DNA of 64,000 nucleotides, taken from positions 24,021 to 88,020 of the forward strand of contig CAYSUK010000003.1 of assembly GCA_964434265.1 (NCBI GenBank), in the 5' to 3' direction. Below are positions 11,261 to 18,325 of this stretch, in pieces (position 1 is the stretch's first letter; the number at the start of each line of letters is the position of its first letter). The notes below the pieces were generated by a model. That model was given only the letters and a program-made list of their open reading frames with translations. It made no database searches and was not told where the DNA came from. The DNA is from an uncultured Christensenella sp. GTDB taxonomy: Bacteria; Bacillota; Clostridia; Christensenellales; UBA1242. The translations under genes were made by a program, and so were the position numbers.

Positions 11261-14023
11261 CTATATATTATTCAAAACAATTTGAATGTCATAACTATGA
11301 TACTCATATGTTTTTACATCAAATGACGAAGTTTCGCTATTATACACATTGCTTGTATCTTCGCCTGACTCTATAAATGTAAGACTTATTTCATATTGTG
11401 TATCTGTCAACCCATTATTCAAGTCATTTTCAAGATAAGATTTAATTTTTTGAATTATTTGTTCTTGAGTATCAGCATCAAAGTCAATCCCGACAACATT
11501 AATTAAAAACTCATCTTGGAACGTAATGTCATCATCAAAATTTTCCATGCCTTTTACATACTCGACAAATTTGTTGTATCTATTGCTAGAATCATTAATA
11601 TTTGTACTATCGACATCTAATATATTTGTCTGACAACCTATATAGAAGACATAACCCCGTTTAGTACTTAATTTATACAAACCACTTACATAAGAGTATG
11701 TTATCCCCAATAAGCCAGTCGCATAATCTTTTTCATATTTACAATCATAGGTGCCGTCAAATTTACCAGTCGTCTTGTTGTACGACTCAACTTCGACAGT
11801 CGAGCCATCAGCATTAATTAGTGAAGGTAATCCATTACTATTTTGAGCAATAATCCAACCGCTATTTTCAATACCTATAAACGTATTGTTTCCACGTGCT
11901 GTTTGAAGCAATGTAGTAAGATTGTTTGCAAAACTATTAAAATATGTTTCGTCTATCACTATTTCAAGCTTACCAATATCATTACAATAAATATAGTCAA
12001 GTATTCCTTCCATGTCGTCATTGCTGTCGATTACTCTCGAATACGCTTTACCTTTATGTACGATACTATTTTGCGTGTAAAAACCATACATGGTGTTTGC
12101 CGGTATTATACTATTACTTATCTTTGCACGATTTGCAAATGGAGTATGAGTCCCTTCAATATACTTATCACTTACAAGAAAATAATGGTGACAGTTGTAC
12201 TCGTATGCCTTTTCAATAATTACTGGCTCACGATAATAATCGTCATTGTATTGCCCGACTGTATAGACAATATTTCCGTCATCATCGGTCATAATCTTGC
12301 TTTGTTGGATCTCCGTCCAAGTAATATCGACAACATACCATTTATTACTAATTTTTACTTTATTCCACGCATGTCCACCGCCACTTACAGTACCCATAAC
12401 ACGAAGACAATCGATGCCTTCCATATTGCAAAGTAGCGAATATGCCTTGCTTATGCCGTCACACACAACTACATGGTTTTTATCCATAAACATGCCTTCA
12501 AGATAATAACAACTATTGTCAGTGCTAGCACTATTATAATAACCATTGTAGTCATATTGACAAGTATTTGCCACCCAATCAAATATACTAAGTGCTTTTT
12601 CATAATCAGTCATTTCGTTACAAACTATCTCGCGCAAAACTTTTTTAGCATTGTTGTAGATTATATATGCCCGACTTGTCGTGTTTGTAAACAATGGTGT
12701 AACATTGTTTTCTACCGCCCAATAAAGTTCTTCACTGGTATTGCACACAGCGGTAAGTACACATTTGTCGCTCGCAAAATCATCGTATGAGTCATTACGT
12801 GTTGTGTAGTCGACGGTCTCATAATAAGGTTTTTCGAGAGCAAATTGTTCAATAGAAACAGCACTATTTCCCACATATCCATCATCGCTTGCAGTCATCG
12901 TCGGTTCGTTGTTTGCAAAAGATTCACTTAATGTTACTACAACATTTGAAGACGTGCCCGATTGTTTGATTTTTAATGTCGGAATAGAGAAATTATATGT
13001 TTCGTAGTAAGACCAATAACTATAACAGTTTGTGCTATTATATAGCCCGTCAACACCCATAATATACAATTGATATTTATAAGCACTGGCGTCCTTGTAA
13101 GATCTAGTAGTCTCATCGTATTTTTGATAAGTAATTACACTAGTATTAAAATAATCATTTCTATGGTTGTTGTAAAAATCCGACGCAACCATAAATTTGA
13201 TTTCTGTTTGTCTTGTAATGTATGCATAATAATATATATTTTGAAGTTCTTCGTAGTCTTCTATGTATTTATCATACACCCCGCCATCAAAAACATACAC
13301 TTCAGAGTACACACCAAAATTTAGCGGATTGTGATAATAAACATCGCTCACATATAGATTGTCGTCGCCTTCATAAACACTCGAAACGGAAATTGCAAGA
13401 ACTTCATTCCCTTTCAAATATTCTTCAACACTAAAATATGGTTGAACTACGTAAAACGAACGAATTTTGTCTGTATTGTCGGTGCTTTCGGTATAATTAT
13501 TGCAAAATATTTGAACAATATATTTTTCTGCAGTCAGACCATTTTTCTTGGTTTCTGACCACCAGATATCACCTGTTTGTGCCAAATAACTAATATCATT
13601 TGGAGCATAACTACTATCTCTAACAATACTTATTTCGCTAGTGTCATAACCTGTCGAAGGGTTTTCTCCGACTCTTATTGTTACTACATTACTAAAACGA
13701 CTATCTTTATAATCATCTCCGCCAATACATTTTGCTTTTATATTGTAGAGTCCATCACTTATTATGTCGTCGCTATAACAATATGAATATGTATTTTTGC
13801 CCGTTTCTTCAACAGTGTACACAACAGCATTATTTACATAAACTTCGTATCCCGAAGCCTTTGAATTGCTGTACCAAGTAATTGTTTCCGCATCTCTGTC
13901 GTCCAACAAAACAGGCGGGCTCAATGAGAGTTTGACACCAAAAGAACAAGCAGAAAGCAACATAGCTCCCACCAAAACCAACACTATGGTTCTAAACAAT
14001 CTTGTCCTTTTAGTTTTTCCCAA
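11261..14023 (-). CDS. large lipoprotein with transglutaminase-like cysteine protease core
   Basis: Cys-His-Asp core VVCDGISKAYSLLCNMEGIDCLRVMGTVSGGGHAWNKVKISNKWYVVDITWTE. With TTG 14023 (RBS GGAGAG 6 nt upstream) the N-terminus is MGKTKRTRLFRTIVLVLVGAMLLSAC, a lipobox. The track start, TTG 14041, abuts the cdd stop and lacks an RBS. Confidence 0.8.
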   Translation of the reverse strand: MGKTKRTRLFRTIVLVLVGAMLLSACSFGVKLSLSPPVLLDDRDAETITWYSNSKASGYEVYVNNAVVYTVEETGKNTYSYCYSDDIISDGLYNIKAKCIGGDDYKDSRFSNVVTIRVGENPSTGYDTSEISIVRDSSYAPNDISYLAQTGDIWWSETKKNGLTAEKYIVQIFCNNYTESTDNTDKIRSFYVVQPYFSVEEYLKGNEVLAISVSSVYEGDDNLYVSDVYYHNPLNFGVYSEVYVFDGGVYDKYIEDYEELQNIYYYAYITRQTEIKFMVASDFYNNHRNDYFNTSVITYQKYDETTRSYKDASAYKYQLYIMGVDGLYNSTNCYSYWSYYETYNFSIPTLKIKQSGTSSNVVVTLSESFANNEPTMTASDDGYVGNSAVSIEQFALEKPYYETVDYTTRNDSYDDFASDKCVLTAVCNTSEELYWAVENNVTPLFTNTTSRAYIIYNNAKKVLREIVCNEMTDYEKALSIFDWVANTCQYDYNGYYNSASTDNSCYYLEGMFMDKNHVVVCDGISKAYSLLCNMEGIDCLRVMGTVSGGGHAWNKVKISNKWYVVDITWTEIQQSKIMTDDDGNIVYTVGQYNDDYYREPVIIEKAYEYNCHHYFLVSDKYIEGTHTPFANRAKISNSIIPANTMYGFYTQNSIVHKGKAYSRVIDSNDDMEGILDYIYCNDIGKLEIVIDETYFNSFANNLTTLLQTARGNNTFIGIENSGWIIAQNSNGLPSLINADGSTVEVESYNKTTGKFDGTYDCKYEKDYATGLLGITYSYVSGLYKLSTKRGYVFYIGCQTNILDVDSTNINDSSNRYNKFVEYVKGMENFDDDITFQDEFLINVVGIDFDADTQEQIIQKIKSYLENDLNNGLTDTQYEISLTFIESGEDTSNVYNSETSSFDVKTYEYHSYDIQIVLNNI

Positions 14024-14041
14024 CTCTATCTCTCCAAACAA

Positions 14042-14449
14042 CTATTCTTCACAATTTACATGATGCATTTTATATGAATACGGCAAAAGGTCGCTTATAC
14101 TCACAACTTGCGTCCCTTCGTCGCCCTTAATTATCACCTTAACATTTGGTGCATATTTACTTAAAAATTGTCTGCATTGGCCACAAGGTGAAAGTATTTG
14201 ACACTTACCATCAAATAGCCCAACTGACACAATAGCTTCAAAGTCACTTTCGCCTTCAGTAAGTGCAGTGCCTACAGCATTTTGCTCAGCGCAAACGCAG
14301 TTCATGCCGTCCATATACATATTTATTCCAAAATACTTTTTTTGAGAACTGGCAAGCACACAACACCCGACAGTGTGGCGGTCATTGTCGCCACGTTCGA
14401 GTATTTTTTTTGTTGCTAGTCCAATAAGTTCTTCATACTTTTTATCCAT
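14042..14449 (-). CDS. cdd: cytidine deaminase (homotetrameric CDA type)
   Basis: Zinc motifs CVCAEQNAVG and SPCGQCRQFL. ATG 14449 is preceded by GAGGTG and lies 1 nt after the TAA of the upstream gene. Confidence 0.85.
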   Translation of the reverse strand: MDKKYEELIGLATKKILERGDNDRHTVGCCVLASSQKKYFGINMYMDGMNCVCAEQNAVGTALTEGESDFEAIVSVGLFDGKCQILSPCGQCRQFLSKYAPNVKVIIKGDEGTQVVSISDLLPYSYKMHHVNCEE

Positions 14450-18284: not shown

Positions 18285-18296
18285 AATACTTAATAA

Positions 18297-18325
18297 ATAT
18301 TACAATTTTTTAATGTTTTTGTAAA
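18297..18325 (-). promoter_or_regulatory. promoter of the TasA-like operon
   Basis: TTTACA (18320-18325), 17 nt, TAATAT (18297-18302). Confidence 0.5.

Follow-up and report, generated by a model that had tools for sequence, protein, structure and literature searches.

A 64,000-nucleotide stretch of contig CAYSUK010000003.1 from an uncultured Christensenella sp., referred to below as the window, contains a cluster of six minus-strand genes. Four of them encode small, divergent relatives of the fibre proteins TasA and BsaA (p1 to p4), and these are followed by genes for a deaminase and for a transglutaminase-like lipoprotein (p6). From sequence homology, a modeled fold and analogy with characterized fibres, we consider it likely that the products of this locus form a heteromeric TasA/BsaA-type surface fibre, which would be built by donor-strand exchange and then matured or cross-linked by the lipoprotein. 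As judged by sequence comparison, the new element is a fixed four-paralogue cluster of TasA/BsaA type joined to a conserved transglutaminase-like lipoprotein; SipW-dependent fibre operons with several paralogues are already known. The cluster has the following features.

p1, 16746-18284, minus strand: 512 residues; TasA/BsaA-superfamily paralogue, group 1.
Insert in p1, 17181-18086, minus strand: residues ~67-368; two tandem FN3-like modules of ~150 residues, lineage-specific.
p2, 16088-16726, minus strand: 212 residues; TasA/BsaA-superfamily paralogue, group 2.
p3, 15399-16076, minus strand: 225 residues, GTG start; TasA/BsaA-superfamily paralogue, group 3.
p4, 14451-15377, minus strand: 308 residues; TasA/BsaA-superfamily paralogue, group 4, candidate membrane anchor.
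Deaminase, 14042-14449, minus strand: 135 residues; PF00383, probable passenger gene.
Transglutaminase-like lipoprotein (p6), 11261-14023, minus strand: 920 residues; PF01841, lipobox.
Promoter-like site, 18297-18325, minus strand: TTTACA, 17 nt, TAATAT; 5' of p1.
Bidirectional hairpin terminator, 18417-18442: 11-bp stem and T-run; ends the DegV gene and marks the 5' operon boundary.
Intrinsic terminator-like hairpin, 11190-11214, minus strand: 11-bp stem and T8; closes the operon, setting it apart from gerA.

BLASTP among p1 to p4 yields no significant match, so their relationship was established through profiles. Fourteen p2 orthologues are detectable, and a profile of these, searched against 1.84 billion representatives, returned 65 relatives, 56 of which were aligned (A2). 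This superfamily alignment holds no near relative of p1, p3 or p4 (best identities ~25-36%). Its profile scores p2 at 229 bits, p4 at 67.6 bits (E = 7e-23) and p3 at 46.8 bits (E = 1.4e-16). Full-length p1 misses the profile because of its ~300-residue insert; p1 minus residues 67-368 reaches 27 bits (E = 1e-10), and an insert-free p1 orthologue of 204 residues in the related locus L001 scores 37 bits. Alignments of the four orthologue groups, built separately from related loci, were also compared with hhalign. All six pairs match at 94.2-98.5% probability (E = 1e-7 to 4e-15), with group 1 at 94-97.6% against groups 2, 3 and 4, group 3 at 97.6% against group 2, and group 4 at 98.5% against group 2. 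By this profile evidence p1 to p4 are therefore true, ancient and very divergent paralogues of one β-sandwich superfamily, and the ordered landmarks that the initial annotation had seen in all four reflect homology, not chance.

The fold ties this group to TasA. The AlphaFold2 (AF2) model of p2 has a predicted local distance difference test score (pLDDT) of 74.8, and in a Foldseek search of the PDB it finds TasA (5of2) as the sole match at E ≤ 0.001 (E = 2.6e-4, probability 1.0). The TasA-like jelly-roll or Ig-like β-sandwich is thus seen in the p2 model, to which p1, p3 and p4 are bound by the hhalign matches. Distant relatives in A2 connect to the curated families: TIGR04090 is matched by 17 of the 56 (best E = 3.4e-12), PF12389 (Peptidase_M73) by seven (best E = 5.9e-6) and TIGR04088 by five (best E = 1e-7). 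TIGR04090 models the BsaA family of SipW-dependent biofilm matrix proteins, TIGR04088 the SipW-dependent signal-peptide class. These relatives also carry canonical T-[LF]-A-Y-F-[TG]-D signals, such as TLTFAYFTD. Taken from profiles and the model, p1 to p4 are a divergent branch of the TasA/BsaA superfamily that lies outside the curated families, and the link, first proposed from ordered sequence motifs, is real but remote.

Differences among the paralogues hint at separate roles. In groups 1-3 a T-x-[AS]-[WY]-[FLY] motif directly follows the hydrophobic segment in all lineages; p1 carries T-A-T-W-L after this segment, p2 keeps V-T-Y-S-L-F-G-D there, and p3 has F-T-F-A-W-Y. The T-x-A-[WY] motif conserved in groups 1-3 is lacking from the group 4 orthologues. 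p4 consists of an N-terminal tail of ~90 residues rich in N, Q, S, G and Y, a basic patch, one transmembrane segment and a β-rich domain, and group 4 proteins in most lineages shown share the long low-complexity tail, the basic patch and the single transmembrane segment. Because the tail and transmembrane segment are present and the SipW-type motif is missing, an uncleaved signal-anchor fits p4. This suggests that p4 is membrane-anchored with a cytoplasmic tail and is a candidate fibre base; the earlier proposal of a membrane-anchored paralogue gains support from the orthologues. The two extra modules ascribed to p1 are real as well, being copies with 66% identity (E = 3e-67), and the insert gives weak fn3 and Pur_ac_phosph_N matches. 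It is a recent tandem duplication. The p1 orthologues have either no insert or inserts of varied size. Their lengths of 204, 236, 249, 278, 391, 498, 512 and 517 residues fit an exposed, fast-evolving surface.

Among the p2 relatives, some (P0037, P0055) have long C-terminal extensions of BspA-type leucine-rich repeats (LRRs). The p2-type gene of locus L013 encodes 335 residues (7045-8052), and an overlapping open reading frame (ORF) of 53 residues (8003-8164) scores 36.6 bits on the A2 profile; the region may be a frameshifted fusion like these LRR-extended relatives.

The cluster is carried by metagenome-assembled genomes (MAGs) of uncultured Clostridia, and some of the related proteins are labeled Christensenellales. 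A genome-collection scan with the p2 orthologue alignment (A1) found only two MAGs, and assemblies of human-gut metagenomes are the source of many related contigs. The core p1-p2-p3-p4-transglutaminase recurs in 11 lineages, down to ~25-30% identity, and the order p1-p2-p3-p4-(deaminase)-transglutaminase is colinear in every array-bearing locus. Four arrangements are seen.

As in the window (L001/L007, L003-L005 and L006; p2 identity 50-37%): all six genes, from DegV to gerABC.
Without the deaminase (L008/L012): array and transglutaminase only.
sipW first (L009 and L017/L018): SipW-type peptidase, six TasA-like genes, transglutaminase and gerA, with a giant protein ahead of sipW in L009.
sipW first, no gerA (L010, L013 and L019): sipW, four TasA-like genes, transglutaminase and unrelated downstream genes.

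A SipW-type signal peptidase opens the homologous cluster in five lineages (L009, L010, L013, L017 and L019), and on these loci the SipW profile built here scores 88-312 bits. The cluster peptidases also pass TIGR02228, scoring 67.9 and 56 bits where the cut-off is 51.85 bits. Five further SipW matches lie on contigs equal in size to those with transglutaminase matches. In L010, L013 and L019 the peptidase, the array and the transglutaminase are kept together despite differing downstream genes, and in L013 p4 and the transglutaminase overlap by 4 nt. Read from gene order, the conserved core is made up of sipW, the four paralogue types and the transglutaminase lipoprotein.

The lipoprotein has the intact Cys-His-Asp core that had been assigned to it. 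PF01841 (Transglut_core) is matched with 45.6 bits (cut-off 23, E = 9.3e-12), and Cys521, His551 and Asp566 are invariant in 38 homologues, in which the lipobox Cys26 is nearly so. The lipobox (...VGAMLLSAC26SF) conforms to the bacterial lipoprotein signal. In the AF2 model (pLDDT 87.5, predicted TM-score 0.82) the signal is followed by a pair of FN3-like domains and a middle α/β domain, and after these come the catalytic core and then the C-terminal β/α domains. Foldseek places TglA of S. pyogenes (9crn, E = 6e-9) on top, then FN3 tandems, and phmmer agrees (E = 1.6e-8); NF045980, the MAG6410 transglutaminase-related lipoproteins, matches over the core (E = 6e-16). A literature search on the function or activity of TglA (9crn) found no paper. 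The Transglut_core fold includes cysteine proteases as well as cross-linking enzymes, and from the model the lipoprotein may be either a transamidase or a protease. A full-length orthologue occurs in 14 lineages and has the array directly upstream on the same strand in 11 of them. The public gene call (P0089, 900 residues) starts 20 codons downstream and would remove most of the signal peptide; TTG at 14023 is the better start because of its GGAGAG site, 6 nt 5' of it, and its better fit to the orthologues.

All six ORFs proposed in the initial annotation are present, with the same coordinates and start choices, and the gaps from p1 to the lipoprotein are 19, 11, 21, 1 and 18 nt (from ORF coordinates). 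The deaminase start, ATG at 14449, lies 3' of GAGGTG. The terminator placed after the last gene at 11185-11214 is found as the hairpin at 11190-11214. As for the single promoter, a site does exist at 18297-18325, and it is made plausible by its position, past the terminator of DegV and with 12 nt between it and the start of p1; it matches the consensus at 9 of 12 positions, and such sites are about equally frequent in shuffled sequence, which leaves it weak alone.

These features suggest the following pathway. A single mRNA, running from the promoter-like site near 18300 as far as the 11190-11214 terminator, would carry all six genes. p1, p2 and p3 would be exported and cut after T-x-[AS]-[WY]-[FLY] by a SipW-type peptidase, whose gene in this clade would have to lie at another place in the genome. 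Once freed, the N-terminal strand of a subunit could enter the sandwich of its neighbor, as in TasA and as modeled for BsaA. p4 would stay in the membrane and accept a strand without donating one, which would make it the base. p1, whose loop gains and loses FN3-like modules, might serve as an exposed adhesive or tip subunit, with p2 and p3 as shaft or adaptor. The lipoprotein would sit next to the growing fibre on the outer side of the membrane, where it might join subunits through Gln-Lys isopeptide bonds, or act as a cysteine protease in their trimming or release. The deaminase would be a cytoplasmic, lineage-specific passenger. A stronger version is tentative: by analogy, the lipoprotein could be a dedicated assembly enzyme that covalently locks subunits together or to p4 by making isopeptide bonds, and the four paralogues would provide a pilus-like organelle of TasA-fold subunits with its tip, shaft, adaptor and membrane base. 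If so, the lipoprotein would be the enzymatic counterpart of the autocatalytic Asn-Lys lock proposed for BsaA, analogous to sortase in Gram-positive pili.

Several observations weigh against the fibre interpretation. Beyond homology, gene order and motifs, which are seen directly, we infer the subunit roles, the co-transcription and the enzyme chemistry. None of p1 to p4 matches the hidden Markov models (HMMs) of PF12389, TIGR04088 or TIGR04090 even at E ≤ 1. The HMM check proposed at the outset therefore came out negative for the window proteins, and these are tied to TasA by transitive, profile-level and fold-level evidence. Even for ten listed relatives the TIGR04090 scores are 15.6-22.6 bits, under the cut-off of 60 bits (that of TIGR04088 is 19 bits). 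Sequence profiles of the window clade (A1, A2 and A6) do not reach TasA in the PDB, and the template-modeling (TM) score of the p2 model against 5of2 is just 0.35-0.37, which denotes a common fold class and not close similarity. No sipW was detected in the 64-kb window by tblastn or by a scan with the SipW profile (best 7.4 bits), nor was a TIGR02228-type peptidase; the same profile finds none within 10 kb either side of the related clusters in L001, L003, L006, L008, L012, L014 and L015. Finally, three of the 14 lineages with the full-length transglutaminase (L014, L015 and L023) have no TasA-like gene. As candidates, direct membership of p1 to p4 in PF12389, TIGR04088 or TIGR04090 is ruled out by the missing HMM matches.

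The statement that there is no sipW nearby thus holds throughout the window. The proposal that the transglutaminase and the deaminase occupy the place of sipW does not, for in L009, L010, L013, L017 and L019 peptidase and transglutaminase are found together, the peptidase as the first gene and the enzyme as the last. With sipW at the 5' end of a cluster that has the enzyme at its 3' end, the enzyme does not replace it, and a replacement is ruled out by these five lineages. By comparison of loci, the window clade has lost the adjacent sipW and gained the deaminase. The SipW-type motif is strongly conserved in the sipW-less clade, where T31, F35, G36 and D37 are invariant, and this fits continued SipW recognition. 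We consider it very unlikely that, after the loss of sipW in the clade, the transglutaminase-fold enzyme came to remove the N-terminal anchors of p1 to p3 as a cysteine protease. The lack of sipW in the window and around the related loci would agree with such a role, as would a fold that includes cysteine proteases and a lipoprotein position at the right face of the membrane. The invariant motif residues speak against it, and the coexistence of enzyme and peptidase in five lineages indicates that the enzyme did not evolve as a substitute.

The array-less lineages bear on whether the lipoprotein belongs to the fibre at all. Because L014, L015 and L023 keep the enzyme without an array, its role may not be fibre-specific, and from gene neighborhoods it is a strong but not obligate partner. 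L014 contains DegV, a 55-residue ORF (9424-9591), the deaminase, the transglutaminase and gerABC. The short ORF resembles the N-terminal tail of p4, with its basic patch and transmembrane segment, so the array was probably lost secondarily in L014; lying between DegV and the deaminase, this ORF is a probable remnant of the deleted array. In another ~70 metagenomic loci the match is confined to the catalytic core (residues ~400-690), and none of the neighbors is TasA-like, SipW or GerA. By sequence these core-only relatives are a broader family, and they rule out the notion that all members of the transglutaminase family accompany TasA arrays. The lipoprotein may accordingly be just a syntenic neighbor that serves some other envelope or spore-related function while the fibre forms without it, a possibility that we take seriously without favoring it. 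The array-less lineages and the looser relatives point that way, as does the position of the enzyme directly upstream of gerABC in 10 of the 14 lineages, L014 and L015 among them; moreover, BsaA and TasA polymerize without such an enzyme (PMC7395162, PMC9674648). Against this, the enzyme gene lies on the same strand immediately 3' of the array in 11 lineages, with tiny or overlapping gaps, the link between array and enzyme survives the differing downstream flanks of L010, L013 and L019, and the enzyme closes every array of this type among the visible contexts.

Two loci give further views of the enzyme and its surroundings. The transglutaminase of L015 is a version of 1582 residues with an extra DUF553 region. 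At 2319-3005, 4340-5035 and 18759-19433 the same locus encodes three paralogues of ~225-231 residues that begin MKKSTK(I/L)IATAVALVLV...; they are a family of small exported proteins scattered around the transglutaminase-gerABC locus and do not match the TasA-like profile. In L026 (2208-3568 and 5903-7381, both minus strand), two TasA-like genes and gerAA all lie on the opposite strand, a few kb upstream of a core-only relative of p6, in what resembles a looser version of the same cluster setting.

The deaminase reported in the operon is confirmed by PF00383 (48.3 bits, cut-off 25, E = 9.6e-13) and has the zinc motifs VCAEQNA (C-A-E) and SPCGQCRQ (P-C-x-x-C). The PDB entry that it matches best is 3oj6, a blasticidin-S deaminase (E = 6.6e-14); matches to cytidine deaminases range from E = 1.2e-13 (EfCDA) to ~1e-3. 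NF005314 scores 93 bits, under its cut-off of 131, and the NCBIfam equivalog cut-offs are not reached. By sequence the protein is of the tetrameric cytidine deaminase or blasticidin-S deaminase type. It may contribute to nucleoside-antibiotic resistance, the best solved relative being blasticidin-S deaminase and not a housekeeping cytidine deaminase. It has no signal peptide and is classed as cytoplasmic, and its gene is separated from p4 by 1 nt. The core order is kept in 11 lineages, but the deaminase is missing from L008, L009, L010, L012 and L013. It is present only in closer lineages, and also in the array-less L014. Since the more distant clusters do without it, the deaminase is ruled out as a functional part of the core and is probably a lineage-specific passenger.

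The flanks are as the initial annotation described them, with the gerA operon and then a giant adhesin gene downstream; upstream lie the DegV gene and a major facilitator superfamily transporter.

GerAA, GerB-like spore permease and GerAC, 7254-11079: downstream of the operon.
Flg_new-repeat / InlB B-repeat giant protein, 2-7132, minus strand: at least 2377 residues, running off the window edge.

An unrelated trio lies side by side at 41135-43069: 41135-41896 encodes a DUF7927/DUF11 repeat surface protein, 42000-42464 a Cu/Zn superoxide dismutase and 42527-43069 an Mrr-type restriction endonuclease.

The recurrence of gerABC directly 3' of the enzyme, even in lineages devoid of the array, suggests an affinity between the enzyme and this germinant-receptor operon. 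The pairing spans 7254-14023 in the window, 9424-12175 in L014 and 10001-18657 in L015. It raises the idea that the module is a spore-associated structure, an appendage or a cross-linked outer-layer fibre expressed in sporulation, which we regard as unlikely. Besides the position of gerABC, endospore appendage subunits (Ena) do appear far down the Foldseek list of p2, at probabilities of 0.10-0.15. In Bacillus, a transglutaminase of a different family is known to cross-link spore coats. A terminator stands between the operon and gerA, however, and L010, L013 and L019 have sipW, the array and the transglutaminase with no gerA nearby. No sporulation-sigma promoter was identified, and the closest characterized relatives are biofilm-matrix fibres of vegetative cells (PMC7395162). 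The adjacency to gerA was all that the earlier spore-surface proposal drew on, and with a terminator in between and four lineages without the adjacency, it finds little backing.

The giant repeat protein is found with the cluster in each lineage in which this flank was examined (window 2-7132, minus strand; L001 from 19493, plus strand; L003 from 18834, plus strand; L009 1-8355; L010 1-8375; L013 1-5422). In relatives it reaches 6492 residues and contains LRR_5. It follows gerABC in the window clade and directly precedes sipW in L009, L010 and L013. This association may reflect a functional link between adhesin and fibre, or merely inherited synteny. It also agrees with a scheme in which p1 to p4 do not polymerize and act as secreted or membrane-tethered β-sandwich proteins, for example coating the surface or supporting the giant adhesin. 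Polymerization of p1 to p4 is indeed a prediction from homology, and BsaB forms only dimers (PMC11580942). This alternative nevertheless appears improbable: all groups conserve the N-terminal strand motif as well as the C-terminal strand, both the set of four types and its order are fixed, and a fold match to TasA together with a dedicated sipW in relatives is the pattern of a fibre-forming family.

The initial annotation could match the locus to no described system. A described relative does exist, the closest known system being the sipW-bsaABCRSD operon of C. perfringens, in which BsaA needs SipW and forms polymers resistant to sodium dodecyl sulfate (SDS) and formic acid (PMC7395162). For BsaA, donor-strand exchange was modeled together with an autocatalytic Asn-Lys lock that relies on an Asn-Glu-Lys triad, membrane rather than wall anchoring was described, and several BsaA/TasA paralogues in single operons were noted, suggesting heteropolymers (PMC11580942). 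That study lists LPxTG proteins, fibronectin, SpaA and choice-of-anchor A domains, signal peptidase and sortase as neighbors of such operons, and mentions neither transglutaminase nor deaminase. Both clusters are clostridial operons with several TasA-like paralogues and a T-x-A-x-F-type N-terminal signal; the SipW-type peptidase comes first in C. perfringens, as it does in relatives of the window locus. BsaA polymers have their anchor in the membrane instead of the wall, and distant p2 relatives match TIGR04090. The bsa operon differs in having two paralogue types against the four fixed here, in its BsaC (von Willebrand A) and two-component system, neither of which is found in our cluster, and in subunits locked by the autocatalytic Asn-Lys bond. 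The window cluster, in turn, has a terminal transglutaminase-like lipoprotein, one paralogue with a cytoplasmic tail and no sipW at the locus.

The tapA-sipW-tasA operon of B. subtilis and sipW-tasA-calY of B. cereus (PF12389) share the fold, with 5of2 as the top match, and the SipW-dependent signal type. In tapA-sipW-tasA a major subunit is likewise paired with a specialized accessory, the nucleator TapA, and donor-strand exchange of TasA and nucleation by TapA are established (PMC9674648, PMC10151520). Unlike that operon, which gives no detectable sequence match, the window has four homologous subunits where B. subtilis has one plus TapA, as well as a transglutaminase partner and no local sipW. 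In the haloarchaeal tafi cluster, a dedicated signal peptidase I is encoded together with subunits for tip, adaptor, shaft and anchor (PMC11821415), the same logic as proposed here. Sulfolobus threads are donor-strand filaments with isopeptide bonds between subunits (10.1101/2022.04.26.489512), and archaeal bundling pili offer a further comparison among donor-strand filaments (PMC9245690). These filaments belong to another domain of life and to other subunit families, and tafi use twin-arginine translocation (Tat) for export; no separate cross-linking enzyme is described in the three papers (PMC11821415, 10.1101/2022.04.26.489512, PMC9245690). TglA of S. pyogenes (9crn) and the MAG6410 lipoproteins (NF045980) resemble the enzyme in the catalytic domain and its Cys-His-Asp arrangement. 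The match covers only a core of ~130-300 residues; specific to the window family are its FN3 pair, its middle domain and its C-terminal domains. In the literature searched, no relevant paper links TasA or BsaA with a transglutaminase.

To our knowledge, the usual picture of TasA-family fibres is of a single major subunit with a helper, and with no assembly enzyme besides SipW. This locus and its relatives present four recurrent subunit types in a fixed order, one of which has a candidate built-in membrane anchor, and a conserved terminal extracytoplasmic enzyme with a Cys-His-Asp core. The clades with and without an adjacent sipW provide a natural test of how far the signal depends on a dedicated peptidase. 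Should the fibre prove to be a substrate of the enzyme, this would represent a new way to stabilize or anchor matrix fibres in Gram-positive bacteria, and would offer a testable model for the membrane attachment of TasA-type filaments, a point left open for BsaA.

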